Source: Lachnospiraceae bacterium
Lineage (GTDB): Bacteria; Bacillota; Clostridia; Lachnospirales; Lachnospiraceae
Length of the DNA stretch: 43,618 bases
Direction of reading: 5' to 3'
NCBI GenBank assembly: GCA_026169045.1
Contig: JAPFDH010000081.1
Location: 1-43,618, forward strand
Shown here piece by piece: positions 25,337 to 43,297 of the stretch. Made by a program: the position numbers and the translations under genes. Under the pieces are notes generated by a model that was not told the origin of the DNA, ran no database searches, and worked only from the letters and a program-made list of their open reading frames with translations. How positions within the stretch are numbered: the first letter of the stretch is position 1; each line of letters opens with the position of its first letter.

Positions 25337-25876
25337 ATGGGACATTTTTATTTTGTTCGTCACGGACAGACCGTGTGGAATGTGGAAAATAAGATTTGCG
25401 GAGTGACTGACAGTCCGCTTACGGAACAAGGCCGTGAGCAGGCGCGGGAAACCGGCCGTAAGATGATAGCGGAGGGAGTGGAAGCAGATGAAATTCTCTG
25501 TTCACCGCTTAGTCGGGCAGCAGATACGGCACAGCTGATTTCCGAAATAACAGGTATTCCATATCGGATAGAGCCGCGATTAATCGAGCAAAACTTTGGT
25601 AAATGGGAATCGACACCCCGTGATGGATTGGACTTTAAAAAAGCCAAAGAATTCTTTGCTTACAGTCATGAAGGTGGCGAATCTACACTTCGTCTGGCCC
25701 AGAGGATCTACAATCTGCTGGATGACATAAAGGCAGAAGCTGATAAAAAGACGTATATTCTGGTTGCACATAACGGAATAGCCAGAGTTGTACAGTCGTA
25801 TTTTATGGATATGACCAACGAAGAATATGCAGCATGGGGCGTGAAGAATTGTGAAGTGATTCGGTATGATTTTTAG
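25337..25876 (+). CDS. Histidine phosphatase-family protein (phosphoglycerate mutase-like)
   Basis: N-terminal RHGQTVWN catalytic motif. SD GGGAGGATGAGG. Confidence 0.8.
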   Translation: MGHFYFVRHGQTVWNVENKICGVTDSPLTEQGREQARETGRKMIAEGVEADEILCSPLSRAADTAQLISEITGIPYRIEPRLIEQNFGKWESTPRDGLDFKKAKEFFAYSHEGGESTLRLAQRIYNLLDDIKAEADKKTYILVAHNGIARVVQSYFMDMTNEEYAAWGVKNCEVIRYDF

Positions 25877-25888
25877 GAGGTGAAATCC

Positions 25889-26410
25889 ATGGGTTTTCAT
25901 ATAGAAACCGTACAGGGAGATATTACAAAGGTTGATGATTTGGAAGCCATCGTAAATGCAGCAAATAACAGTCTGCTGGGTGGAGGTGGTGTGGATGGTG
26001 CCATTCACACCGCGGCAGGATCAGAACTGCTGACAGAATGCCGTAGCTTACATGGCTGTAAAACCGGCGAAGCGAAGATTACACATGCTTATCGCCTGCC
26101 GTGCAAATATGTGATTCATACCGTAGGACCAATTTGGCGAGGTGGTAATCATGGAGAGCCGGAACTTTTGGCGAGCGCCTACAGAAATTCTTTGCAGTGT
26201 GCTGTGGACAATGGAATCCGGACATTGGCATTTCCGTCGATCTCTACAGGTGCCTACGGCTATCCGGTAAATCAGGCGGCTGTGATTGCAGTGAAAACTG
26301 TGAGAGAGTTTTGTGCCAAAAATCCGGGGAAGATTGAAATTGTGCGCTTTGTTTTATTCCGTTCAGATATATTGGATGCGTACGATAAAGCTATTATAGA
26401 TATAGCTTAA
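25889..26410 (+). CDS. Macro-domain protein (O-acetyl-ADP-ribose deacetylase / ADP-ribose-binding, YmdB-like)
   Basis: GDITKV...[21 protein letters not shown] macro signature. Start ATG 25889 after AGGAGGTG. Confidence 0.8.
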
Positions 26411-27402: not shown

Positions 27403-28641
27403 ATGGCATATAACGAGCTGGTGAAGAATTTCAAGCGTATACGTGATTATATGAGAGAATTTTATGTGTATGGTTTTAAAAGCAGAGATGAGTTTATCCA
27501 AAAGAGTACGCGATCCTATGATGATGAACGCCGTCGTTTGGAAAGCTGGCTTGGTGATTATATGCAGTTTCGCCAGACTCCGGAAGGAAAAAATATATTT
27601 CTCTCTATTGATAGTCGACTGACGAAGCATAACCCATTGTTCAAAGCTTGGAAAACAAAAAGCTTTACGGATGGAGATATCACACTGCATTTTGTGCTTC
27701 TTGATATCTTGTCAGATCCGAATATCCGTATGACAACAGGAGAGATAACAGAACGCATAGATGAATATCTTTCTCAGTTTACAGAACCCAGAATGTTTGA
27801 TGAATCAACAGTAAGAAAGAAGCTTAAGGAATATGTTTCGCAGGGAATCTTAATTTCAGAGAAAAAAGGAAAGGTATTGTATTATCGAAGGGCAGAGAAT
27901 ATTCCGTTACCGGATAAGGATATGCTGGACTATTTTTCTGAGGTGCTTCCATGTGGTGTGATAGGATCTTTTCTGTTGGATAAGATGGAGCAAAGCAGTA
28001 GCCATTTTGCATTTAAGCATCATTACATAACCGGTACAATGGATACAGAGATTCTCTATTCCGTGTTTCTTGCAATAAGAGAAAAGCGTGGTATGACACT
28101 TGAAATAATCAACAGATACAATCATCGTATTACAGAAAATTATGTGATTCCGATTAAGGTGATGATAAGTGTCCAGAGTGGGCGGCAGTATCTCATGGCA
28201 TACACACCTCGATTTAATAGGATTACGCCGTACAGAACAGATAATATTATTTCTGCTAAACTAGATACGATCAGTGAACGTTTTGATGAGCTGCAAAGTA
28301 CATTTGAGAAGATGCTTCCGAATATGTGGGGAGTAAGTACAGAGGGAAGGACTGGAGCGAGAATCGAGCATGTGGAATTTACGGTTCATTATGCAGATGA
28401 TGAAAAGCATATTCGAAATCGATTGGAACGTGAAAAACGATGCGGTATTGTTGAGCATCTGGATCATAATACCAGCAGATTCTCGGCGGATGTATTTGAT
28501 GCCAGTGAGGTGATTCCATGGATCAGAACTTTTATCTGTAGAATCACAGAGGTCCATTTTTCAAATAAGGAGCTGGAAGAGCAATTTAAAAATGATATCA
28601 ATGATATGTATGCTCTGTATGGCATTGGAGGTGATGAGTAA
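27403..28641 (+). CDS. WYL-domain transcriptional regulator (wHTH plus WYL; PafB/BrxR-like architecture)
   Basis: wHTH-like block LLDILSDPNIRMTTGEITERI...VRKKLKEYVSQGIL. WYL-like block YVIPIKVMISVQSGRQYLMAYTPRFNRITPYRTDNII. Translationally coupled to the next gene (TAA-ATG adjacent). Confidence 0.55.
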   Translation: MAYNELVKNFKRIRDYMREFYVYGFKSRDEFIQKSTRSYDDERRRLESWLGDYMQFRQTPEGKNIFLSIDSRLTKHNPLFKAWKTKSFTDGDITLHFVLLDILSDPNIRMTTGEITERIDEYLSQFTEPRMFDESTVRKKLKEYVSQGILISEKKGKVLYYRRAENIPLPDKDMLDYFSEVLPCGVIGSFLLDKMEQSSSHFAFKHHYITGTMDTEILYSVFLAIREKRGMTLEIINRYNHRITENYVIPIKVMISVQSGRQYLMAYTPRFNRITPYRTDNIISAKLDTISERFDELQSTFEKMLPNMWGVSTEGRTGARIEHVEFTVHYADDEKHIRNRLEREKRCGIVEHLDHNTSRFSADVFDASEVIPWIRTFICRITEVHFSNKELEEQFKNDINDMYALYGIGGDE

Positions 28642-29547
28642 ATGATTTTCAGTGAACTTTATGGTGCGTATTACAATACGGTCGCAGCAATTCTGGCGGA
28701 AGCAGTTACTCATCCGGTTTCAGAAAAAAATATTGGAAATATTATCAAGAAATATGCTTTTTCAGAAAGTATATGGGCAATTTCTGATGCTATTAAGGAA
28801 GAAAGGTGGCAAATAGTAAAGGCAGATGGAACAACACCAATTACCAATAAACCATCTATGCCGCTTACAATTTTACAGAAAAGATGGTTGAAGGCAATTG
28901 GCTGTGATCCGCGATTAAAGCTTTTCGGAACGTTTGATTTTGATTATCCGGATGTAGAACCTCTTTTTCTGCCAACGGATTATATCATATTTGATAAGTA
29001 TGCAGACGGAGACGATTATACAGATGAACGATATATCTCCAATTTTCGGTTAATTCTCGATGCAGTAAGAAATCAGTATCCGTTGAAAATTGAAACCTTA
29101 AATAGAAAAGGAATGCAGATCAGCCAGGTGGTACTGCCGGAATATTTGGAATATTCGGAAAAAGATGATAAATTTAGATTGATCGGTGCTGGAAACCGAT
29201 TTGAAAGTACGATTAATCTTGGGCGTATTATCAGCTGTAAGCGGTATGAAAAATCATTGGAAATCACACAAGGAAAATGTAATTCTGCGCGATCATGCTA
29301 TGTTGTTTTTGAGCTAAAGGATGAAAGAAAGGCTTTGGAACGGGTGCTCCTTCATTTTGCTCATTTTAAGAAAGTTGCCAAACGCATAGAGGAAAATCGA
29401 TATTCCATAACTATTTATTATGATAGAGAAGATGAAACAGAGATCCTAATCCGTATCTTATCGTTTGGTCCGTTGATAAAGGTTACAGCCCCTGTGCATT
29501 TTATAGAATTAATGAAACAGAGATTATTGGAGCAAAAAAAGTTGTGA
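28642..29547 (+). CDS. Second WYL-domain protein (paralogous partner; PafC-like)
   Basis: WYL-like block QISQVVLPEYLEYSEKDDKFRLIGAGNRFESTINLGRIIS. Tight coupling to the upstream regulator. Confidence 0.45.
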   Translation: MIFSELYGAYYNTVAAILAEAVTHPVSEKNIGNIIKKYAFSESIWAISDAIKEERWQIVKADGTTPITNKPSMPLTILQKRWLKAIGCDPRLKLFGTFDFDYPDVEPLFLPTDYIIFDKYADGDDYTDERYISNFRLILDAVRNQYPLKIETLNRKGMQISQVVLPEYLEYSEKDDKFRLIGAGNRFESTINLGRIISCKRYEKSLEITQGKCNSARSCYVVFELKDERKALERVLLHFAHFKKVAKRIEENRYSITIYYDREDETEILIRILSFGPLIKVTAPVHFIELMKQRLLEQKKL

Positions 29548-29571
29548 GCATTCGTGTTCGCAACTTTTTTT
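29541..29571 (+). terminator. Rho-independent terminator after the WYL pair
   Basis: GTTGTGAGC-ATTCGT-GTTCGCAAC plus TTTTTTT. Confidence 0.65.
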
Positions 29572-29627
29572 CCGTGATAAAGGAAGACAGATTTTGTAAA
29601 ATAGCATTGTAATTACTTCTCAAAGGA

Positions 29628-29742
29628 TAAAGATGCTTACAGCAATTTTCAAGATATGTGATTATTTCTAAGAAAGAGTTCCTGATTGGTATTCAGGATA
29701 TTACCGGTGAGATCCTGGGTTTGTATTGAAAAAGCATCTTGT
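29628..29742 (+). ncRNA. Candidate Y-RNA-like structured ncRNA 1 (ends paired by a 9-bp stem)
   Basis: AAGATGCTT (29630-38) pairs with AAGCATCTT (29732-40). Internal hairpins CCTGA...TCAGG and CAGGAT...ATCCTG. ACAGCAA motif just inside the 5' stem. Possible promoter GTGATA-18-TAAAAT upstream. Confidence 0.35.
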
Positions 29743-29744
29743 AA

Positions 29745-29842
29745 TAAAGGCACCTACAGCAAAGTTGAATGAATAAGAGGTTTAAGCAAATGAGAATTAT
29801 CATTTTACGCGGGTTCGAATCCCACTTTAATGGTGCCTTGTG
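29745..29842 (+). ncRNA. Candidate Y-RNA-like (YrlA-type) ncRNA 2 with tRNA-like T-arm
   Basis: AAGGCACC (29747-54) pairs with GGTGCCTT (29832-39). The UA dinucleotide and ACAGCAAAG motif follow the 5' strand. Perfect tRNA T-loop GCGGGTTCGAATCCCAC at 29809-29825. Sits immediately upstream of the Ro60-like gene. Confidence 0.45.
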
Positions 29843-29872
29843 TTTATGTACTATGGAAAAGGAGAGACGCCT

Positions 29873-31363
29873 ATGCTGAATTTATTAAAACAGGAAGCAA
29901 ATATGACATTTACAGAAAATGGTGCTGTTACATACGAAACCAGCGGTTCCGATTGTATGGATTTATTTGCATCCATTGGTGCACTCAGACGAGAAAGCGA
30001 TGATGAAATAATTGCTCGTTTTGTTCGTGCATATACAGAAAATGCAGATATGGCAATGAAGCTTCTTTTCTTTGCCCGGGACATTAGAGGCGGATTAGGT
30101 GAGCGACGTGTGTTTCGTACCATTCTTACATGGCTTGCTGAAAATAAACCGGATTCCGTAAAAAAGAATATGTATTATGTCGCAGAGTATGGTCGCTATG
30201 ATGATTTGTTGGTTCTTCTGGATACGCCCTGTGAGAAAGAAATGCTTTCCATACTTCAAACGCAGTTTGAAAAAGACATGGAAGCGGTTGGAAAGAATGA
30301 AACGGTATCCCTATTGGCAAAGTGGTTGCCGTCAGTAAACGCATCCAATCAACAGACGATTCGAAAGGCAAAAAAAATTGCAAAGGCATTTGGTATGACG
30401 GATGCCGTTTACCGAAAAGCAATTACAGCACTTCGGGCAAGAATACATATTATCGAGAATAATCTTCGCCAAAAGGATTATTCTTTCGATTATGAGAAAC
30501 AGCCGTCCCGGGCGATGTTTAAATATAGGAAAGCATTCTTAAGAAATGATCGGGAAAGATATAGCGAATTTCTTACAAAAGTCAGTTCGGGTGAAGCAAA
30601 ACTCCATACTGACAATATATCTCCATATGAATTGGTTGAGCCATATCTGATAACCGATTGGGATTGGAATTCATCATCTTTTATGCGTGGCATTTCTCCG
30701 GAAGAGAAAGCTGCTTTGAATGCAACATGGAATGCGTTGCCGGATTTCGGAAGCAAAGAGGATGCGATTGCAATTATTGATACATCAGGGTCCATGTATT
30801 GTGACAGCAAGCCAATTCCGGCCGCTATTGCATTATCATTGGGATTATATTTTGCAGAACACAATAAAGGAAGGTTTAGAAATCATTTTATTGAGTTTTC
30901 AGCAAGGCCACAGTTGCTTGAAATAAAAGGTGAAACTTTTGCAGACCGTCTTCGTTACATAACAACATTTAATGAGATGGCAGATACAAATCTTGAAGCG
31001 GTATTTGATCTGATTCTGAACGCAGCCGTGAAGAATAGAATCCGTCAGGATGAAATGCCTGCTAAACTAATTATTCTTTCTGATATGGAGTTTAATTCCT
31101 GTGTGAAAAATGCTTCAGAAAGCAATTTTAATAGTGCAAAGAAAAAGTACACTGCGAAAGGGTATAAGCTTCCGGAAATCATTTTTTGGAACGTTGCCAG
31201 CAGAAACAGACAACAGCCGGTAACCATGAATGAGCAAGGTGTTGTACTGGTTTCTGGTGTGACACCGAGAATTTTTGAGATGGTTGCCGGAGGTAAGCTT
31301 TCTCCATATGCGTTTATGTTGGAAGTATTGGAAAGTGAGCGCTATGCTAAGATAGCAGCATAG
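29873..31363 (+). CDS. Ro60-like protein: TROVE/DUF2828-like N-terminal region plus C-terminal von Willebrand A domain with intact MIDAS
   Basis: MIDAS DTSGSM (IAIIDTSGSMY) with downstream T and LIILSD. N-terminus NGAVTYETSGSDCMDLFASIGAL, FARDIRGGLGERR. Start ATG 29873 after AAAAGGAGAG. Confidence 0.55.
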   Translation: MLNLLKQEANMTFTENGAVTYETSGSDCMDLFASIGALRRESDDEIIARFVRAYTENADMAMKLLFFARDIRGGLGERRVFRTILTWLAENKPDSVKKNMYYVAEYGRYDDLLVLLDTPCEKEMLSILQTQFEKDMEAVGKNETVSLLAKWLPSVNASNQQTIRKAKKIAKAFGMTDAVYRKAITALRARIHIIENNLRQKDYSFDYEKQPSRAMFKYRKAFLRNDRERYSEFLTKVSSGEAKLHTDNISPYELVEPYLITDWDWNSSSFMRGISPEEKAALNATWNALPDFGSKEDAIAIIDTSGSMYCDSKPIPAAIALSLGLYFAEHNKGRFRNHFIEFSARPQLLEIKGETFADRLRYITTFNEMADTNLEAVFDLILNAAVKNRIRQDEMPAKLIILSDMEFNSCVKNASESNFNSAKKKYTAKGYKLPEIIFWNVASRNRQQPVTMNEQGVVLVSGVTPRIFEMVAGGKLSPYAFMLEVLESERYAKIAA

Positions 31364-31403: not shown

Positions 31404-32681
31404 ATGATAGAGATAAAAGGAAAGAGGAATACTGCAATCTGTTATACAAACGTAATAGATGATGGAGCAATCGAACAAATCCGAAGAATGTGTGATTATA
31501 ATTTGACAGAAGGAAGTCGGGTAAGAATTATGCCGGATGTACATTCTGGAAAGGGGTGTACCATCGGTACTACTATGACGGTCGTGGATAAGGTTTGCCC
31601 CAATATTGTAGGAGTTGATATAGGATGTGGTATGTATACGGTTAAGCTGGAGGACAAAAAGCTTGACTTTGAACGACTCGATGAAGTATGTCATTACATT
31701 CCGTCTGGAATGAATGTCTGGGACGGCAGAATGGAACGATTTGATCTGACAGCTCTTCGCTGTTATCGGTCTTTGAAAGACACACGAAGATTGGAACGTT
31801 CATTGGGAACGTTAGGCGGAGGAAATCATTTTATTGAGGTGGATAAGGACTCGGATGGAAACTTATACCTTATCATCCATTCCGGAAGCAGAAATCTGGG
31901 AAAACAGGTAGCAGAAATTTACCAACAGCTTGCGATCGATCTTCATACTGGTAAGGAGGATTATTTTTCCAGACGTGATGCAATTATCTGTTCTTTTAAA
32001 GCAGAAGGACGACGATCTGAGATACAAAATGCATTGAAAGAGCTGGAAAAAGAGTATACGTCACAAGTACCGGATGTCCCGGAAGATCTTTGCTGGTTAT
32101 ATGGTTCCTTTTTAGAGGATTATCTTCATGATGTGGGAATTTGTCAGAGATTTGCCAGAAGAAACAGAGAACGCATGGCAGAAATTATAGTAGAACGAAC
32201 CGGAATGAGGGATGCAGAGGCGTTTCATACGGTTCATAACTATATTGATACAAAGGAAAGGATTCTTCGAAAAGGTGCTATTGCAGCCCATATCGGAGAA
32301 AAGGTATTGATTCCAATTAATATGCGTGATGGTTCTATTCTTGCTGTAGGAAAAGGAAATCCTGAATGGAATTATTCCGCGCCCCATGGAGCCGGACGAG
32401 TTATGTCAAGATCAATGGCTAAACAAACCATAAATATGGATACATATCGGGAATCGATGAAAGGTATCTATACAACATCAGTAAATGAAAGTACTATTGA
32501 TGAATCTCCAATGGTTTATAAATCATTGGAAGATATTATTGATGTTATTGGCGAATCGGTAGAAATCATTGATATGATCAAGCCCATATACAATTTCAAA
32601 GCGGCAGATGATGATTCTACATGGAGGAAAAGAAAACGGTTGACTGGGGAGAACGAAATGGGGCCGTTGCAAAATAGATGA
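31404..32681 (+). CDS. rtcB: RtcB-family RNA 3'-phosphate/2',3'-cyclic phosphate ligase
   Basis: RtcB metal/GTP-site motifs GGGNHFIEV, PDVHSGKGC and SAPHGAGR. SD GGGGAAGGGTG. Confidence 0.85.
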   Translation: MIEIKGKRNTAICYTNVIDDGAIEQIRRMCDYNLTEGSRVRIMPDVHSGKGCTIGTTMTVVDKVCPNIVGVDIGCGMYTVKLEDKKLDFERLDEVCHYIPSGMNVWDGRMERFDLTALRCYRSLKDTRRLERSLGTLGGGNHFIEVDKDSDGNLYLIIHSGSRNLGKQVAEIYQQLAIDLHTGKEDYFSRRDAIICSFKAEGRRSEIQNALKELEKEYTSQVPDVPEDLCWLYGSFLEDYLHDVGICQRFARRNRERMAEIIVERTGMRDAEAFHTVHNYIDTKERILRKGAIAAHIGEKVLIPINMRDGSILAVGKGNPEWNYSAPHGAGRVMSRSMAKQTINMDTYRESMKGIYTTSVNESTIDESPMVYKSLEDIIDVIGESVEIIDMIKPIYNFKAADDDSTWRKRKRLTGENEMGPLQNR

Positions 32682-35336: not shown

Positions 35337-36296
35337 ATGTGGGGGGGGAGTATTACGAAGATTGAAGATTTAGTGATAAAAATGCCAACAGAGGAAATCG
35401 ATGAAAAGGATTGGAATCTTGAAGAATGGAAACAAAAGTATCCGATGGATTACTATAAAGCTTTGCGAATTTTGTCAGAAGCGAGTAACGGAGTTGTTGC
35501 TACAGAGATTTTTAAAGCTATATACCAAATAACACGTTTGCATGTACCTGATGTTTTGTTCAAATATTATTCATTGTCAAATGATGAGGAATTAAATAAG
35601 AAAAAATTTCAAACCTTAAGTGAGGGAAAACTTTTTATGTCAGAGATTAAGGATTTTAACGATCCATTTGATGGTAAAAGTTTTTTCTACAATCCAAAAA
35701 GATTGGAAGATATCGATAGGTTACGTGTTCATAAAGGAAGATTGATAGATGATTTTACTGTGTTTATAAGGGGAACATGTTTTACAGCTAATGGAGTTCA
35801 GTCAATGCCGATGTGGGCTCATTATGCCAACAATCATAAAGGTTTTTGTGTTTCTTATGATGTAAAAGAAAATTTGGGACTCAAAAGTAATATATTCCCG
35901 ATACAATATACAGAAGAAAGGCTAGACGTAACTGCATTGATGCGTAAGCATGCAGAATTAATTTGCGATAAAATTGATGAAAATATACGACGAGGAGAAA
36001 AGATAACGCAATATGATGATTTGACAATAATTTATATGGCATTATTACTATATAATGTTAAGCATATATCGTGGAATTATGAGAATGAATTCAGATATTT
36101 TGTGCCATCAAATGCAAGTGGGATTCCATATGCTAAAGCGATTCCTAGAGCAATTTACATAGGAATGAATTGCGAGGAAAGACACAAAAAAGCACTAGAA
36201 GATATAGCAGACTATTGGGATGTTCCTTTGTATCAAATGGGAATGGATGAATGTTCAGAAAAATATGAATTAGTTGCAACTAGAATGCGGAGCTGA
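35337..36296 (+). CDS. DUF2971-family protein
   Basis: LFKYYSL...LSEGKLFMSEIKDFNDPFDG matches the DUF2971 core (KY.SL...fNDPfE). Start codon uncertain (G-rich SD GGGGGGGGAG with no nearby ATG; possibly GTG 35376 or ATG 35382). Confidence 0.55.
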   Translation: MWGGSITKIEDLVIKMPTEEIDEKDWNLEEWKQKYPMDYYKALRILSEASNGVVATEIFKAIYQITRLHVPDVLFKYYSLSNDEELNKKKFQTLSEGKLFMSEIKDFNDPFDGKSFFYNPKRLEDIDRLRVHKGRLIDDFTVFIRGTCFTANGVQSMPMWAHYANNHKGFCVSYDVKENLGLKSNIFPIQYTEERLDVTALMRKHAELICDKIDENIRRGEKITQYDDLTIIYMALLLYNVKHISWNYENEFRYFVPSNASGIPYAKAIPRAIYIGMNCEERHKKALEDIADYWDVPLYQMGMDECSEKYELVATRMRS

Positions 36297-36761
36297 TAGC
36301 GTAGAATGTAACATAAAAAATACGGTACGTGATGCAAGTTTAGAAGCTACATTATACGAGCATCAGAAAAAGATTAAGTGCATCGAAAAAATATACTTGT
36401 AATCATTTCTAAAGACATACTATATACAGGAAGCGTATTATTATATGAAATAGAAGAAGCCCTTGATGTTTAGGAAATGTGTTTTCCTATTGTATATCCG
36501 GAATCTAGTTTTAGGTGATCATCTTTGGCATTATCTGGTTGATGTGAATGAACAGGCACTAGCAAGATTGAATATGCTCGTGAAACTGATACAGGAAGTA
36601 GAGTGTATGATGGAAATTAAAGGTCATTGGTAATAGATTTGAAGGATGAAAAATATTTGTAACAGGCTGGAAGAAATTGTGATAATATTTTTTACACAAG
36701 GGAATGAAAGTAATAAACGATTTATGGGGCTACAAAACTACGTTAAAAGAAATAGAGGAAA

Positions 36762-38213
36762 ATGATGATCAAAATTATAAAATGCAAGCAATGGCGGGCA
36801 CGAAAGAATACAATAGTACTTCATTATGACAACTGGGATGATTATGGATATAAGACAACATATCGTATTAATTATTATGATAAAGATGGAAATTCTGTTT
36901 GGGAAAGTAGTATTCAAATTTATTGTACAAGATTGGATGAAGACGGTTCCGGAGGAGGCAAGGTAGATGAATATTTACCAAGTGAAATTGCAAAATTGGA
37001 TGATTCATTCTGTTCACTTGGTTGTGACATGAATTTTTATTCGGGATTAAAAAAAGCTTTGCCAAAAGATTATTTGGATATTTTAAACAGATTAAATGAT
37101 TTGGCCTATAATGAAAAACGATGGAATCAATTCAAGAAATATACCGGAGTCCAAAAGTCGCTATTAAGATCTAGTAGTTCAATTAAAGCAAGAGAAGAAG
37201 CATTCGCTATATTAGAAAATAATTTTATTAAAGAAAAAAATCTTTCTTTTTCGTATAGAACTCGTATTCCATATAGTGATATCATAGTTTCATTGAATTT
37301 TTTGTTTAATAAAAAGGCGGATCTTCCACATAGAATCAACGCAATTGTGGGAAAAAACGGAACGGGTAAAACACATATTCTTAATAATTTAGCAGAAGAT
37401 TTGAGCGGTTTCAAACTTGAAGAATTTGATGATAATGCATTTGAAAGAGGGAAAAGGCCATCTTTTGATAAAGTGATTTCTGTATCTTACAGTGCATTCG
37501 ATCCATTTAAGAAATTGAAAGGCCAAAATTCATTGAATAGTTATGTTTATTGTGGAATACAATCAGAAAAAGGCACATTGAAACTTAACGAGATACAAGA
37601 TAATTTTTGGAAGTCTTTAGAAACTATAAAGAAAAGGGATAGATACGAACAGTGGAAAAGAATAATTACAGAGTTATTTGCTGAAGAGAATTATAATATA
37701 ACTTCACAAATTGATGAATCTAGAATGAGAGATATTAATTGGAGCTCTGGACAAAATGTATTAATATCGTCTATGACAGAGGTTGTTGCAAAAATTGATA
37801 AGGAATCAATTATTCTATTTGATGAACCAGAACTACATCTTCATCCAAATGCTATAGCGAATGTTATGCGAATGTTTAATAAAATTCTTGAAGAATTTAA
37901 TTCATACGCAATTATAGCGACACACTCGCCGATTATTTTGCAAGAGATTCCTTCTAATAATATTATTGTATTAGAAAGAATTGATAACCAGCCCTTTGTC
38001 AGGAGACCTGAAATCGAGTGCTTCGGCGAAAACATTTCGCTCATTACTAGAGATATTTTTGATGTAACTAGTAAGGAAAGTTATTATCAAGCCTTTTTTT
38101 TAAAAATGAAGGAAACTGGAAAAACAAAAGAACAAATAGAAAAATTGTTTGAGTATAATTTGGGATTAAATGCACTTATTTATCTGGAAACATTATACAA
38201 GCAGGAGAAATGA
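36762..38213 (+). CDS. ptuA: Septu PtuA-like ABC-type (AAA_15/21) ATPase
   Basis: Walker A IVGKNGTGKTH. Walker B/D-loop ILFDEPELHLHPN (DEPExHLHP signature of OLD/PtuA/GajA-class ATPases). Final TGA overlaps the ATG of the next gene. Confidence 0.55.
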   Translation: MMIKIIKCKQWRARKNTIVLHYDNWDDYGYKTTYRINYYDKDGNSVWESSIQIYCTRLDEDGSGGGKVDEYLPSEIAKLDDSFCSLGCDMNFYSGLKKALPKDYLDILNRLNDLAYNEKRWNQFKKYTGVQKSLLRSSSSIKAREEAFAILENNFIKEKNLSFSYRTRIPYSDIIVSLNFLFNKKADLPHRINAIVGKNGTGKTHILNNLAEDLSGFKLEEFDDNAFERGKRPSFDKVISVSYSAFDPFKKLKGQNSLNSYVYCGIQSEKGTLKLNEIQDNFWKSLETIKKRDRYEQWKRIITELFAEENYNITSQIDESRMRDINWSSGQNVLISSMTEVVAKIDKESIILFDEPELHLHPNAIANVMRMFNKILEEFNSYAIIATHSPIILQEIPSNNIIVLERIDNQPFVRRPEIECFGENISLITRDIFDVTSKESYYQAFFLKMKETGKTKEQIEKLFEYNLGLNALIYLETLYKQEK

Positions 38214-38951
38214 ATGATTAATTACATAGAAAACACAGAAATAAATGATGAAGGTGTATTCAAAGACATAATAAAATATAAGCACGAACCTGGAAAAACA
38301 AAATTAAAAGATTGTAAAAAAGAAATTTTTGAAGATTATTTAATTTATAAACAAAATTCCTGTGCCCTTCAGAAAGTTATACCTGATATTCGTATACCTG
38401 ATGAATCTAAAAAAGAACTGATTAAAACATATAACAGTAATCCAAGTGCTTTGCAAAAATCTAAGTTGATGATAAAGAAAAATTTATCTAACATATTGAG
38501 AGCAAAATGTCCCTATTGTTTAATTTCTGCGCATAGCACATTTGATCACTATTTGGACAAGTCTAAGTATCCAGAATATGCATTGTTTTCAAGCAATCTT
38601 ATTCCATCATGTGCGGAGTGCAATTCTTTGAAAAGTGATTTTTTATGTGATAGTAAAGGCAATAGATTATTTATTAATTTTATTTTTGATGAGCTTCCTG
38701 CTTATCCGTTTTTAAAGTATATTCTTTCTATAGAAGGAGAGAAAATTGTACTTAAGAAAGTATATCTAGATTTTGATGATAATGAACCTAAAAAACAAAT
38801 AATCAAAAATCATTTTAAAAAATTAAAGTTAATTCCTCGACTTGAAGACCAATTTGATGTTGCTATATCCACGATTATAGAAGAATTTCATGAATATAAC
38901 TATAGTACTCGAGAGGTAAAGGAAGTCTTGACAAAAAAAATGAGGGCTTAG
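38214..38951 (+). CDS. ptuB: Septu PtuB-like HNH endonuclease
   Basis: His-Me finger / HNH: CPYCLISAHSTFDHYLDKSKYPEYALFSSNLIPSCAECNSLKSD (CxxC...DH...N...CxxCN). Confidence 0.55.
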   Translation: MINYIENTEINDEGVFKDIIKYKHEPGKTKLKDCKKEIFEDYLIYKQNSCALQKVIPDIRIPDESKKELIKTYNSNPSALQKSKLMIKKNLSNILRAKCPYCLISAHSTFDHYLDKSKYPEYALFSSNLIPSCAECNSLKSDFLCDSKGNRLFINFIFDELPAYPFLKYILSIEGEKIVLKKVYLDFDDNEPKKQIIKNHFKKLKLIPRLEDQFDVAISTIIEEFHEYNYSTREVKEVLTKKMRA

Positions 38952-39354: not shown

Positions 39355-40521
39355 ATGGCATCAATCGTTCAACGTAACAAAAGCTTTAGCGTAGTTTACA
39401 ATATTTACGATGGAGACAAGAAAAAACAAAAGTGGGAGACCTATCATTCTTATAAAGAGGCTCTACATCGAAAAGAGCAAGTAGAGATCATTTATCAGAA
39501 GAAACAGCTGAAATATCGTTCAGGAACTCTGGCACAGTTTTTGAATGAATATGTGGAACTATATGGGCACGTTCATTGGGCTTGCTCCACCTATAGCAGC
39601 AATACAGCGCTGATTCGGAATTATATTATTCCGTTCTTTGGAACCATGCAACTTCATGAGTTTAGTCCCAAAGTGATTGCAGTAATCTATAGTCAACTAC
39701 AAAGAAATCCGAAAATCACGCCACAGCTTATGAATAATATTCATAAACTATTACATAGTGCATTTGAACAAGCTGTACTATGGGAATATCTAGATTACAA
39801 TCCTTTCAAAAAAGCCAATCTTCCGAAAATATATTCGCAGGGGATTGCAATGCTGTCCTTGGATCAGATTAGAATACTATTGCAAAATTGCACGGAGCCG
39901 ACGCTAACGTTAGCTGTTCACTTAGCTTTTTCGGGTTCTTTACGAAAGGGAGAAATTTTAGCTCTTACTTGGATTGACATAGACTTCGATAAGGGGACGG
40001 TGTCGGTCAGCAAATCCTTGAAGCGTATCCGAAAGGATGCTGTCCAGGTGCTAAACGGTAAAGACATTCTTTATCAATTTCCGGCTATATTTGATGAAGG
40101 GCGTACCGTTGTTGTATTGAAACGGCCAAAAACTCATGCCAGTGTCCGGACGGTGTATTTACCGGAATATGTAATGAATCTGCTTTGGAACGTAAAGAAA
40201 GAACAAAGAGCTTTAAAAAGAGGAATACCGGAGCTTGTTTTACGTTATGGAAATGGAAGACCTCTTCAAGAAGAAACGCTTCCTCGTTTGTTGGAAAAAC
40301 AGCTGCTAGCGCTTGGGCTTCCCAAAGTTACTTTCCATAGCTTGCGTCACAGTAGTATAACATATAAATTAATACTTACTGGTGGAAACATCAAAGCAGT
40401 TCAAGGTGATTCTGGTCACGCACAGGCGGAGATGATCACAGAACGTTATGGTCATATTATTGATTCTTGCCGCAAGCAGTGTTCAAAAGATTTTGAAGAA
40501 GACTTTTATAAGAGCCTGTAA
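39355..40521 (+). CDS. Tyrosine-type site-specific recombinase/integrase with AP2-like N-terminal arm-binding domain
   Basis: N-terminus KSFSVVYNIYDGDKKKQKWETYHSYKEA (Arm-DNA-binding-like). C-terminal catalytic residues HSLRHSSIT...ERYGHI (R..H..R..Y). SD AAGGAGG. Confidence 0.8.
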   Translation: MASIVQRNKSFSVVYNIYDGDKKKQKWETYHSYKEALHRKEQVEIIYQKKQLKYRSGTLAQFLNEYVELYGHVHWACSTYSSNTALIRNYIIPFFGTMQLHEFSPKVIAVIYSQLQRNPKITPQLMNNIHKLLHSAFEQAVLWEYLDYNPFKKANLPKIYSQGIAMLSLDQIRILLQNCTEPTLTLAVHLAFSGSLRKGEILALTWIDIDFDKGTVSVSKSLKRIRKDAVQVLNGKDILYQFPAIFDEGRTVVVLKRPKTHASVRTVYLPEYVMNLLWNVKKEQRALKRGIPELVLRYGNGRPLQEETLPRLLEKQLLALGLPKVTFHSLRHSSITYKLILTGGNIKAVQGDSGHAQAEMITERYGHIIDSCRKQCSKDFEEDFYKSL

Positions 40522-41951: not shown

Positions 41952-42055
41952 ACGAAAAAAGTACACGATGGATTCAGAGCCGGGTTTATGGTATGATAGA
42001 TGCGTATCATAGCTTGGCTCTTTTCTATGGCAGGCAGATAGAAAGGAGAAATGGA

Positions 42056-43297
42056 ATGTCAGAAGTAAGAAGGGACCATAAAGGCCGGAAATTACTTATG
42101 GGAGAGAGTCAGCGGAAAGACGGGAAATATGAATACAAGTATCAGGATGCACGTGGCAAAAGAAAGACGGTGTACAGTTGGAGACTGACTCCTTCAGACC
42201 GGATGCCGGCAGGAAAACGTAATGATATTTCCTTAAGAGAAAAAGAAAAACAGATTCAGAAGGATTTAAACAGCAATATCATACCGGATGGCGGTGATTA
42301 TACAGTCTTGGATCTTGTAGAAAAGTATATCCGGACGAAGACAGGCGTTCGCCATAATACTAAAGCAAATTATAAGTTTGTGATTAATGTGATCAAGAAA
42401 GAGGCATTTGGTCAGAAGCGTATCGATAAAGTCAAAGTATCGGACGCGAAAGAGTGGCTGATTAAAATGCAGCAGATGGACGGGCGTGGCTACAGTTCCA
42501 TACATACGATCCGAGGCGTTGTAAGACCGGCTTTTCAGATGGCGGTGGATGATGATTTACTGATAAAGAATCCTTTTGAGTTTCAGCTTAATACGGTTGT
42601 CGTGAATGACAGTGTCACAAGAAATGCTCTGACACCAAAGCAGGAAAGAGACTTTTTAGAGTTTGTAAAGAATGATAAGCATTTCAGCAAATATTATGAT
42701 GGAATTTATATTCTGTTTAAAACCGGGCTCCGTATTTCAGAATTTGTTGGGTTAACAAAGAAAAATCTGGATTTTGAGAACAACAGGATTATTGTGGATC
42801 ATCAGTTGCAAAGGACAAGAGACATGAGGTATCTCATTGAGGATACCAAAACAGAAAGCGGTATGCGAATGGTTCCTATGACACCGGAAGTCAAGGAGTG
42901 TTTTCAGAACATTCTTGCCAACAGAAAGAAACCAAGGATTGAGCCGATGGTCGATGGGTATAGCGGATTTCTGTATCTGGACAAAAATGGGAAGCCTATG
43001 GTGGCGTTGCACTGGGAAAAGTATTTCCAGCATATTCGTGAGAAGTACAACAAAATGTACAGAGTACAGATGCCGCTTGTTACGCCACATGTTTGTAGGC
43101 ATACCTTTTGCAGCAATATGGCCAAGTCAGGAATGAATCCAAAGACGCTGCAATACATTATGGGGCATAGTGATATTTCGGTAACACTGAATGTTTATAC
43201 ACATGTAGGATTTGAAGATGCGGAGAAAGAAATGCAAAGATTAACAGATACAAAGTCTGAGAAGTCTACGGCGTACCGTAAAATATCTGTGTCGTAA
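42056..43297 (+). CDS. int: Tyrosine integrase, Int-Tn916 family
   Basis: N-terminus MSEVRRDHKGRKLLMGESQRKDGKYEYKY (Tn916 Int MSEKRRDNRGRILKTGESQRKDGRY...). Catalytic C-terminus HVCRHTFCSN...LQYIMGHSDISVTLNVYTHV. Start ATG 42056 after AAAGGAG; the track ORF starts earlier without an SD. Confidence 0.85.
   Translation: MSEVRRDHKGRKLLMGESQRKDGKYEYKYQDARGKRKTVYSWRLTPSDRMPAGKRNDISLREKEKQIQKDLNSNIIPDGGDYTVLDLVEKYIRTKTGVRHNTKANYKFVINVIKKEAFGQKRIDKVKVSDAKEWLIKMQQMDGRGYSSIHTIRGVVRPAFQMAVDDDLLIKNPFEFQLNTVVVNDSVTRNALTPKQERDFLEFVKNDKHFSKYYDGIYILFKTGLRISEFVGLTKKNLDFENNRIIVDHQLQRTRDMRYLIEDTKTESGMRMVPMTPEVKECFQNILANRKKPRIEPMVDGYSGFLYLDKNGKPMVALHWEKYFQHIREKYNKMYRVQMPLVTPHVCRHTFCSNMAKSGMNPKTLQYIMGHSDISVTLNVYTHVGFEDAEKEMQRLTDTKSEKSTAYRKISVS

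Follow-up and report, generated by a model that had tools for sequence, protein, structure and literature searches.

Two handle-capped, tRNA-like RNAs as probable Y-RNA-like partners of a predicted Ro60-like DUF2828 protein in Clostridia and phages

The window analysed here comprises 43,618 nt of contig JAPFDH010000081.1 (assembly GCA_026169045.1) from a Lachnospiraceae bacterium, read on the forward strand. The site under study, positions 29628–29842, holds two tandem elements, RNA-1 and RNA-2, both within the 325-nt gap between an open reading frame that ends at 29547 and the ATG (29873) of a gene for a DUF2828-domain protein. An earlier note on this DNA had described them as two stem-closed RNAs, and the features it described are all present in the sequence and are conserved and covarying in homologous loci. 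On this comparative evidence both elements are real and conserved, and are members of an RNA family that is absent from Rfam and occurs in gut Clostridia and in many phages. The two RNAs are probably Y-RNA-like partners of a Ro-like protein in an RNA-repair operon, a reading to which we assign a probability of roughly 0.65. It builds on the observed sequences, their covarying structure and their strict synteny with DUF2828, which holds in Clostridia and in six phage groups, and on a Ro60-like fold predicted for the protein. These RNAs are a distinct form of the Ro/Y-RNA theme, in which both the handle and the Ro-like protein family are different, the modules form arrays and the distribution is wide.

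The family combines an invariant handle with a variable body. As deduced from the aligned sequences, the handle consists of an 8–9 bp helix that joins the ends (AAAG.../...CUUG), an unpaired (N)ACAGCAA and an A-rich 3' side. The comparison covered 80 genomic loci of DUF2828 homologues from many Clostridia families. In an alignment of their upstream regions the modules read 5'-AAAG-N5-NN-ACAGCAA ... N5-CUUG-3', and the closing helices carry compensatory changes. The ACAGCAA that had been noticed after both 5' stems in the window is the signature of the family, and the stems, whose conservation upstream of homologous genes had been proposed as a check, covary across related DUF2828 loci. Y RNAs are recognized by ends that pair into a helix with a conserved motif; here a covarying terminal helix lies next to the invariant ACAGCAA.

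Handle modules were first found with a regular expression. Across 482 kb of homologous loci, the gene strand carries the 5' motif of the handle at 405 sites and the opposite strand at 25. A perfect 8-nt Watson-Crick partner lies 25–280 nt downstream of 158 of the 226 5' handles, as opposed to ~11 when the inner 5-mers are exchanged between handles, and each of positions 4–8 of the closing helix shows three or four Watson-Crick pair types; because the regular expression selected for pairing of this helix, such counts arise partly by construction, a bias that is addressed by the swap control and by the independent inner helices. The helix is preceded by an A in 95% of modules and followed by a G in 85%. 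An A-rich tract, with A in 40–64% at the bases 9–13 nt before the 3' end of the helix, completes the handle.

For the inner helices we used A3, in which 33 RNA-2-type modules were aligned with MAFFT without fitting to structure. In it 92.6% of cells are paired, compared with 78.5% in shuffles and 33–47% for slid partners; compensatory changes support 18 of 24 pairs, and none of 500 shuffles reaches the observed values. Pairing of the acceptor helix is weak or variable (71% of cells). From the raw MAFFT alignments RNAalifold recovered no more than some of the helices, since the acceptor region varies in length; the structure was accordingly supplied by hand and compared with slid and shuffled controls. 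A covariance model of the same 33 modules, R1, gives 287 matches in 540 kb, every one of them (287/287) on the DUF2828 strand. All 79 loci that offer 400 nt or more of upstream sequence contain one module or more, R1 recovering loci that the regular expression had missed. The arrays contain from 1 to 8 or more modules over up to ~2 kb, each module is closed by its own helix, and the proximal one typically ends 21–54 nt 5' of the start codon. The commonest order of a module pair is AAGAU followed by AAGGC, as in the window. In a reverse test, exact matches to AAAGGCACCNACAGCAA were collected from viral contigs. There are 30, about the number expected by chance, and the 3' partner strand is present in two; these two carry WYL-WYL-DUF2828-RtcB, and the other 28 have neither.

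RNA-2 lies next to the DUF2828 gene, and consists of the following parts:

29746–29840, + strand: RNA-2, handle-capped tRNA-like module of the AAGGCAC handle class, gene-proximal (A3 covariation)
29747–29762, + strand: 5' handle of RNA-2, strand AAGGCACC plus bulge UACAGCAA, with ACAGCAA at 29756–29762
29764–29831, + strand: predicted tRNA-like body of RNA-2 (A3 column mapping and R1 alignment)
29832–29840, + strand: 3' handle of RNA-2, strand GGUGCCUU plus G

The 8-bp closing helix pairs AAGGCACC (29747–29754) with GGUGCCUU (29832–29839). In modules of this type the bulge leads into an acceptor-like helix that is variable, then U8 and a D arm (GCUAAGUGGUUAAAGC in most). A 5-bp anticodon stem, whose loop reads Y-U-NNN-R-N, and a canonical T arm come next, and the 3' acceptor strand then runs straight into the closing helix. 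The window copy follows this order. Its 6-bp acceptor-like helix (29764–29769 with 29826–29831, including two G-U pairs) runs on into the closing helix. The D region (29772–29787) is degenerate, with a broken stem and AAU where relatives carry GCU, and the anticodon-like arm (29789–29793 with 29800–29804) has a 6-nt loop. The T arm, GCGGG-UUCGAAU-CCCAC at 29809–29825, contains one C.A mismatch in its stem. Both the 8-bp helix and the near-perfect T-stem-loop had been pointed out before and are as described. The UA behind the 5' strand had been likened to tRNA positions 8–9; it belongs instead to the conserved handle bulge UACAGCAA, and the U8-like base is 29770, after the acceptor-like helix. 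R1 scores RNA-2, one of its own training sequences, at 82.5 bits. The closest relative, in locus L001, shares the 6-nt loop and has an intact D stem.

RNAfold, run on the interval as the earlier note had suggested, finds exactly two independently closed domains. ARAGORN detects 0 tRNAs across the window, and Rfam at gathering thresholds has no match in it; the broken D stem, the C.A pair in the T stem and the 6-nt loop explain why both tRNA searches miss RNA-2. With the Rfam threshold relaxed to E<=10 over 29400–30000, the one match of relevance is to an 18-nt T-arm fragment of tmRNA, within RNA-2 (E 0.043). The R1 matches in the window are the two RNAs only. At the RNA-2 position, relatives are called tRNA by both ARAGORN and Rfam, under many identities and with Rfam tRNA scores of 30–53 bits. 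Among the 150 best R1 matches the 'anticodon' loop has 7 nt in 108, with Y32 in 93%, U33 in 80% and R37 in 93%, and the loops of relatives are diverse (CAU, GAA, UCG, UCU and others).

RNA-1 is a more divergent module, with the following parts:

29629–29741, + strand: RNA-1, handle-capped divergent tRNA-like module of the AAGAUGC handle class (R1 match)
29630–29645, + strand: 5' handle of RNA-1, strand AAGAUGCUU plus bulge ACAGCAA (29639–29645)
29665–29675, + strand: hairpin 1, UUUC-UAA-GAAA, in the D-arm position (aligned with relatives)
29681–29697, + strand: hairpin 2, putative anticodon-arm mimic of 5 bp with the 7-nt loop UUGGUAU in the format Y32-U33-NNN-R37-N38 (aligned to the R1 anticodon arm)
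29704–29718, + strand: hairpin 3, putative T-arm equivalent, CCGG-UGAGAUC-CUGG (position and covariation)
29732–29741, + strand: 3' handle of RNA-1, strand AAGCAUCUU plus an unpaired G, preceded by an A-rich tract

The closing helix has 9 bp, pairing AAGAUGCUU (29630–29638) with AAGCAUCUU (29732–29740), and this closing stem had been recognized correctly; the two internal hairpins of the first description have become three. Hairpin 1 has covarying counterparts in relatives (GCUCC/GGAGC, GUCC/GGAC, CCUCC/GGAGG). Those of hairpin 2 have the loops UUCAUAC, UUUCGGA and CUCAUAA on a stem that also covaries. The stem of hairpin 3 covaries as well, pair 89-102 being CG in 12 sequences, GC in 6 and UA in 1, and its loop in the RNA-1 type is UGARAKY. 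In 23 modules the GUGARANNC loop lies at 0.69 of module length, the relative position at which RNA-2-type modules carry the canonical T-loop. RNA-1 was not in the training set of R1, which aligns with it over its whole length at 33.9 bits (E 4.7e-6), and in A4, an alignment of 19 RNA-1 homologues, 8 of 15 predicted pairs show compensatory change. RNA-1 is a diverged tRNA-like module with an anticodon-arm mimic and a variant T-type loop. In Mogibacterium-type loci the RNA-1-type handle (AAGAUGC) surrounds a canonical tRNA-like body. From this and from hairpin 3 at the T-loop position it follows that both window RNAs are handle-capped tRNA mimics.

Genuine tRNA genes also occur among the modules of some loci. 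In four loci of the Mogibacterium/Anaerovoracaceae group (L058, L059, L060 and L069) the array and the DUF2828 gene end a run of 15–18 ordinary tRNA genes, and handle modules are interleaved with the last tRNAs of the run. An apparently genuine tRNA-Phe(GAA) that has no handle is flanked by two handle modules in L016 (2289–2361; Rfam 67.3 bits), L021 (2294–2366; 65.8 bits) and L024 (2092–2167; by ARAGORN only). Several proximal modules share the anticodon arm GGGGA-CUGAAAA-UCCCC with tRNA-Phe(GAA), which suggests that the bodies derive from real tRNAs.

The gene 3' of the array (29873–31363) encodes a product with Pfam domains DUF2828 and DUF7788, assigned to PHROG 850, 'RNA-binding protein'. 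The best matches to its predicted structure are Xenopus Ro60 (1yvp; 12.7; 304), a Thermus phage Ro60 (9l5y; 12.5; 288) and Rsr (2nvo; 11.3; 286), followed by isolated vWA domains. The earlier note had placed a Ro60-like gene 30 nt after RNA-2; the distance from the G at 29840 to the ATG at 29873 is 32 nt. The DUF2828 family comprises 6,947 clusters at 50% identity, and the best 150 of these are all ~500 aa long and ~40% identical. By protein-level tblastn a homologue is present in 711 phage records, some of which annotate it as 'Ro-like RNA binding protein' or 'RNA-binding protein'. When the region was compared with phage records by blastn, no match was found, and a viral-contig scan seeded with a single protein query was equally negative. 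Handle modules adjoin the DUF2828 gene in six of the eight phage loci examined:

Listeria LMLPA3: three modules, just upstream of DUF2828
Enterococcus H1: one module, upstream of DUF2828
Fusobacterium Fnu1: one module, upstream of DUF2828
Campylobacter Los1: two modules, upstream of DUF2828
Escherichia EcoM2 (Felixounavirus): four modules, among tRNA genes downstream of DUF2828
Mycobacterium Silverleaf: three modules, downstream of DUF2828

No RtcB lies within 3 kb in five of the six, which indicates that DUF2828, and not RtcB, is the constant neighbour of the handle. Phage modules are often minimal (46–60 nt), with a helix, NN-ACAGCAAUUAC, a short variable stretch, an A-tract, the other strand of the helix and UG. 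Two have a permuted T-acceptor-D core like that of the bacterial Y RNA YrlA. One of them, in Silverleaf, matches the YrlA model at 39.8 bits (gathering score 69) over the permuted tRNA core only, with an ACAGCAA-type handle outside the match; the other, in the Felixounavirus, has no YrlA match at E<=1. Two further elements were seen in these phage loci. In LMLPA3 (L082, 1458–2009) a match to ROOL RNA (89 bits, gathering score 99.1, E 3.5e-17) lies among tRNA genes ~1 kb upstream of the DUF2828 gene. In Silverleaf (L081, 1017–1895) the gene of a band-7-like membrane protein lies 1.1 kb upstream of the DUF2828 gene, which is annotated 'Ro-like RNA binding protein'; this is reminiscent of the pairing of Band-7 with a tRNA-like RNA described by Burroughs & Aravind.

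The RNAs and the DUF2828 gene form part of a cassette:

27403–28641, + strand: WYL-domain protein 1, putative ligand-sensing regulator and first gene of the cassette (PADLOC WYL model, E 4.6e-9)
28642–29547, + strand: WYL-domain protein 2, a paralogue of the first, directly 5' of the RNAs (PADLOC WYL model, E 3.1e-6)
29541–29571, + strand: terminator-like element, hairpin GUUGUGAGC/GUUCGCAAC with a U-run behind it, which overlaps the stop codon of the second WYL gene (read from the sequence)
29574–29602, + strand: candidate sigma-70-like promoter GTGATA-17-TAAAAT, of putative function (scan match 9/12)
29873–31363, + strand: DUF2828/DUF7788 protein with a predicted Ro60-like fold (helical-repeat domain and vWA), proposed RNA-binding partner
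31404–32681, + strand: RtcB, RNA 3'-phosphate ligase (Pfam RtcB, E 3.4e-58)

In Clostridia the order WYL-WYL-RNA array-DUF2828-RtcB is conserved. Homologues of the first WYL protein are found by tblastn at the equivalent upstream position in 53 related loci, those of the second in 59, in every case immediately 5' of the RNA array, and rtcB is directly 3' of the DUF2828 gene in at least 48. The upstream terminator proposed before can be read as the hairpin at 29541–29571, though a consensus terminator scan of the region did not list it; the GTTCGCAACTTTTTTT terminator-like element recurs in L001, L002 and L008. The candidate promoter is present and nearly identical in L001, with a spacer of 17 where 18 had been counted. 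Just 5' of RNA-1, an inverted repeat TTCC-N8-GGAA (29570–29585) contains the candidate -35 hexamer. The sequence around it is conserved in L001, L002 and L008, and the repeat may be an operator for the WYL regulators. In some viral contigs (L088 403–449, L105) the order is RNA module, RtcB, DUF2828 instead of RNA, DUF2828, RtcB.

The surroundings of the cassette include several further genes. Three kb 5' of it (25337–26410), genes for a histidine phosphatase (His_Phos_1) and a Macro-domain protein adjoin each other behind the gene of a YgjP-like metallopeptidase. By-products of RNA ligation are processed by Macro and phosphoesterase enzymes, and the histidine phosphatase and Macro protein might be part of the repair cassette. 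Defence-type genes occur 3–6 kb 3' of the cassette (35337–38951): a DUF2971 protein (35337–36296) that matches the PADLOC candidate system PDC-S31, and an AAA_15/AAA_21 ATPase (36762–38213) directly followed by an HNH protein (38214–38951), a pair that resembles PtuA/PtuB of Septu. Beyond these are two tyrosine recombinase/integrase genes (39355–40521 and 41993–43297), the second with a Tn916-type DNA-binding domain, which suggests a mobile or integrated island 3' of the cassette.

The Y-RNA-like reading is modelled on known Ro systems. Ro60 binds Y RNAs through the helix of their paired ends, and in D. radiodurans a Y RNA tethers Rsr to PNPase (PMC4201824). The Salmonella genes rsr, yrlB, yrlA, rtcB and rtcA make up a single operon that is induced once the ligand-sensing regulator RtcR binds tRNA halves (PMC7790460). 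The RtcB gene that follows here parallels this rsr-yrlBA-rtcBA arrangement. The domain in YrlA that resembles a tRNA has been proposed to help RNA ligation or to compete with an anticodon nuclease (PMC4201824, PMC7790460, bioRxiv 10.1101/312249). The logic of the present cassette is the same with different parts (sensor-regulators, paired-end tRNA-like RNAs, a Ro-fold protein and RtcB), and by this analogy the handle is proposed to be the dock for DUF2828. The promoter at ~29574–29602 would produce the RNAs as the leading part of an RNA-DUF2828-rtcB transcript, from which they would be cut as stable small RNAs; the true tRNA genes interleaved in other arrays suggest maturation of the RNase P/Z type. 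The Ro60-like DUF2828 protein, encoded just downstream, would bind them through the handle as a docking site. They would then act as Y RNAs do for Ro60, with the body as an adaptor, gate or decoy module. A tRNA-like body could tether the Ro-like protein to enzymes that handle tRNA, for example the RtcB ligase encoded alongside, or could gate or compete for tRNA-directed activities during RNA damage. The two upstream WYL proteins would control expression, in the role of RtcR in Salmonella.

Several points weigh against this reading, in addition to the partly constructed closing-helix counts. The fold energy of the interval is unexceptional (z-score -1.25; 24 of 200 shuffles fold as well), and thermodynamics alone would not establish the RNAs; the comparative data do. 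The promoter score of 9/12 is no better than the shuffle expectation for the region. RNA-2 of the window is a slightly degenerate copy, with its broken D stem and 6-nt loop, and could be decaying. The model of the DUF2828 protein has a predicted local distance difference test score (pLDDT) of 67.6 and was derived from 19 fairly similar sequences, giving it moderate confidence. A DUF2828 profile compared with PDB sequences returned noise only (MS2 coat, E 0.17) and no Ro60, and Pfam has no TROVE match to the protein. The term 'Ro60-like' is accordingly supported at the level of the fold, for a distinct protein family. The link between the RNAs and this protein is one of genetic linkage, from which we infer the binding; the transcription of the handle RNAs, their processing and a function in RNA repair are likewise presumed. 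No terminator was found between RNA-2 and the DUF2828 gene, by reading of the sequence or by scan, and a purely cis role is consequently possible.

Such a cis role would make the modules 5' untranslated structures of the DUF2828-rtcB mRNA that are never released as separate RNAs, serving either as autoregulatory binding sites for DUF2828 or as sensors read by the WYL proteins. The constant location of the modules on the gene strand, the short distance from the proximal one to the start codon and the unbroken passage from RNA-2 into the gene all agree with this. However, phage modules also lie downstream of the gene (Silverleaf) or scattered among tRNA genes (EcoM2), arrays extend to 8 or more modules with a closing helix for each, and the interleaving of true tRNA genes suggests tRNA-type processing. 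In addition, the look-alike Class I RNAs of Dictyostelium are discrete, abundant small RNAs (PMC7919456). A leader that acts only in cis is unlikely as a full account; it is also compatible with the Y-RNA-like reading and does not exclude it.

The bodies might alternatively be decoys or sentinels for anticodon nucleases or other RNA-damaging toxins, either cut and then resealed by RtcB or giving rise to fragments that signal to the WYL regulators, with the handle mainly holding the halves together. The canonical and diverse anticodon loops fit this, as do the co-encoded RtcB and WYL sensors and the defence-type genes that adjoin the cassette in the window. In Salmonella the inducing ligand consists of tRNA halves with cyclic phosphate ends, and a decoy role for YrlA has been suggested (PMC7790460). 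Many modules, including RNA-2 of the window and its relative in L001, nevertheless have a non-canonical 6-nt loop or no tRNA-like body, with minimal modules of 47–60 nt, and phage module loci often have no RtcB nearby. Bait or substrate RNAs are about as improbable a full explanation as the cis leader; since they are compatible with binding by DUF2828, they partly overlap with the Y-RNA-like reading.

The earlier note had gone further and read the elements as YrlA/Y-RNA-like. The Y-RNA-like part of this stands on context, conservation and fold; identity with YrlA does not, failing on the Rfam search, the motif and the order of domains, with a protein that Pfam assigns to DUF2828 and DUF7788 and not to TROVE. 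Canonical YrlA/YrlB RNAs (RF02553; Chen et al. 2014, PMC4201824) of a bona fide Rsr, the Ro60 orthologue, have much in common with the window RNAs. They are small RNAs beside and co-stranded with a Ro60-type protein gene, often with RtcB, their ends pair, and they are tandem and processed from one precursor, with one tRNA-like RNA per locus and simpler others. The adjoining genes for a Ro60-like fold protein and RtcB, the T arm, and the sub-threshold YrlA match of the DUF2828-linked Silverleaf module would favour membership, the last being limited to the permuted core and leaving the handle outside. The tests of membership contradict it. The Rfam covariance scan that had been proposed for Y_RNA and YrlA gave no match to either in 29400–30000 at E<=10. 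The conserved YrlA motif GNCGAAN0-1G, in contrast to the (N)ACAGCAA bulge and A-rich 3' side of the handle RNAs, is absent near the 5' ends of the window RNAs, which read AAAGAUGCUUACAGCAA and AAAGGCACCUACAGCAA (family consensus AAAG-N5-NN-CAGCAA). The YrlA domain is permuted as V-T-acceptor-D (PMC4201824), whereas the domains here run D-anticodon-T, and the T-loop lies at 0.70 of the length of the module. YrlA assignment further looks for a TROVE gene within ~4 kb; the gene here lies on the same strand, 32 nt 3' of RNA-2, and its product has the predicted Ro60-like fold without a TROVE domain in Pfam. The partner of YrlA is a TROVE Ro60 where the proposed partner of the handle RNAs is DUF2828/DUF7788, and the handle-RNA arrays are larger, reaching 8 or more. 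Membership in YrlA/YrlB is very unlikely.

The least probable reading of all takes the elements for ordinary tRNA genes or pseudogenes, or for the 3' half of a tRNA that integration left behind. The perfect T-loop, the tRNA calls among relatives and the integrase genes ~10 kb downstream might speak for it, but the window has no tRNA call, the handle caps the acceptor end and leaves no free CCA end, the same arrangement is found in the same place in 79 loci of many Clostridia families, 'anticodons' such as AAA, AUA, UUA and 4-base loops are impossible for real tRNAs, and modules without a tRNA-like body share the identical handle. The earlier note had named an integration remnant in advance as an observation that would overturn it; this was not borne out, since the same handle-capped module lies upstream of DUF2828 in dozens of genomes. 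A CRISPR-like array or repeat element was also considered and ruled out, as the 'repeat' strands covary per module and are not constant, and the bodies are structured RNAs.

Ro60 and the Y RNAs are a classic ribonucleoprotein whose bacterial biology is known from few species. The Y-RNA-like reading would define a second, much larger Ro-like system with its own class of RNA partners, one that no RNA database lists. The system is found in abundant human and ruminant gut Clostridia and in well-used model and therapeutic phage groups (Felixounavirus and Listeria Pecentumvirus among them), and tRNA-mimicking bodies with varied anticodon loops bear on tRNA-targeting defence systems and on RNA repair.

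Among known RNAs, tRNA (RF00005) shares with these bodies the D arm with GG, the 5-bp anticodon stem, the Y-U-NNN-R-N loop and the T arm GGUUCGAAUCC; it differs in its free 3' end, where the handle caps the acceptor end, and in a 7-bp acceptor helix where the acceptor-like helix here has 6 bp. Yrn1 of D. radiodurans has the same topology (PMC4201824), with a Ro-binding terminal helix as acceptor stem followed by D-like, anticodon-like and T arms, and like RNA-2 of the window it has a 5-bp 'anticodon' stem with a 6-nt loop. In its published description Yrn1 has retained a Ro-binding helix of the metazoan type, and an ACAGCAA handle is not among its reported features. The b7a-tRNA predicted by Burroughs & Aravind 2016 is described at second hand (bioRxiv 10.1101/312249) as close to an authentic tRNA, beside RtcB and occasionally beside Rsr, and in that description it is defined by a Band-7/SPFH neighbour. 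RtcB is present in the window, and the window genes that were scanned include no Band-7 domain. As far as this second-hand account goes, the tRNA-like component of the handle RNAs may have been partly noticed before as b7a-tRNA.

The closest resemblance in the handle itself is to the Class I RNAs of Dictyostelium (Kjellin et al. 2021, PMC7919456). These have a short end-joining helix, an 11-nt motif by its 5' strand, a variable remainder and termini ending in CUGU, and are stated to be unique to Dictyostelia, with their mechanism unknown. The curated sequences follow GUUGAC-CUUACAGCAA-...-A-rich-...-GUCAAC-UG (PMC7919456), and the consensus printed for Rfam RF01414, GaUcuC-CUUACAGCAAUua...AAAAA...GagAuC-UG, is that of the handle. 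Class I and handle RNAs thus share a covarying end-joining helix, the motif CCUUACAGCAA after the 5' strand, an A-rich tract and a 3' (C)UG(U). RNA-1 (GCUUACAGCAA) agrees with the Dictyostelium 11-mer CCUUACAGCAA at 10 of 11 positions and at all five invariant ones (3, 6, 9, 10 and 11, which are U, C, C, A and A); RNA-2 (ACCUACAGCAA) agrees at 9 of 11 and at four of the five. In 584 kb, 21 exact copies of the 10-mer CUUACAGCAA lie on the gene strand and none on the other, with 0.56 expected.

RF01414 matches a 71-nt Felixounavirus stretch at 24.0 bits (E 0.005), with the full model 1–56 aligned. Over the Listeria phage interval, Rfam at E<=10 yields just two matches, both to RF01414, one for each short module (23.1 and 18.5 bits). 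On each of these three short phage modules RF01414 is the best-scoring or sole Rfam family. All three phage scores are below the gathering score of 41.5, and RF01414 has no match in the window. A model built from 29 dictyostelid sequences only (R2), from two closely related species with a nearly fixed stem sequence, has as its two best matches in both strands of 584 kb the handle modules at L068 (21.7 bits, E 0.023) and at 29635–29684 of the window (20.3 bits, E 0.052). Without filters its matches are weak and partly noisy (<=13.7 bits), as the two close species and near-fixed stem make it generalize poorly.

It is conceivable, if somewhat less than an even chance, that handle RNAs and Class I RNAs are one ancient family whose handle (terminal helix, CUUACAGCAA, A-rich tract and 3' UG) docks a Ro60-like DUF2828 protein; a common origin or a common partner is unproven, and we hold it tentatively at the same strength. 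DUF2828 proteins have been reported from eukaryotes in literature that mentions the domain. If the relationship is true, Class I RNAs would not be unique to Dictyostelia and would be the Y RNAs of a second Ro-like protein lineage. A DUF2828 protein would be their long-sought partner, which would give a 20-year-old orphan RNA class a candidate partner and function, and the published claim of a dictyostelid invention tied to multicellularity would be overturned. In RNA repair and in conflict between phage and host, the variable bodies, tRNA-like in bacteria, would then serve as adaptor or decoy modules that can be exchanged. The long Class I RNAs DdR-66 and DdR-67 contain a segment that we take to resemble a region of large-subunit rRNA, and their bodies may likewise mimic an RNA of the translation machinery. 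In their bodies they carry GGUGGGAGAC...CGUGAAAUACCACC and ...CGUGAAAGACCACC (PMC7919456), with a loop that resembles the GUGARANNC of hairpin 3 in RNA-1-type modules.

The two groups differ in setting. The RNA genes of Class I are dispersed and carry a DUSE promoter, and the known direct binder of their products is the RRM protein Rnp1A, with no link to DUF2828 reported (PMC7919456). In size, the window RNAs, at 111 and 93 nt with tRNA-like bodies, contrast with Class I RNAs of 42–65 nt with an unstructured variable middle. The ranges nevertheless meet from both sides: relatives of the window RNAs include modules of 47–65 nt, and Dictyostelium has members of 85–140 nt in DdR-65, -66 and -67.

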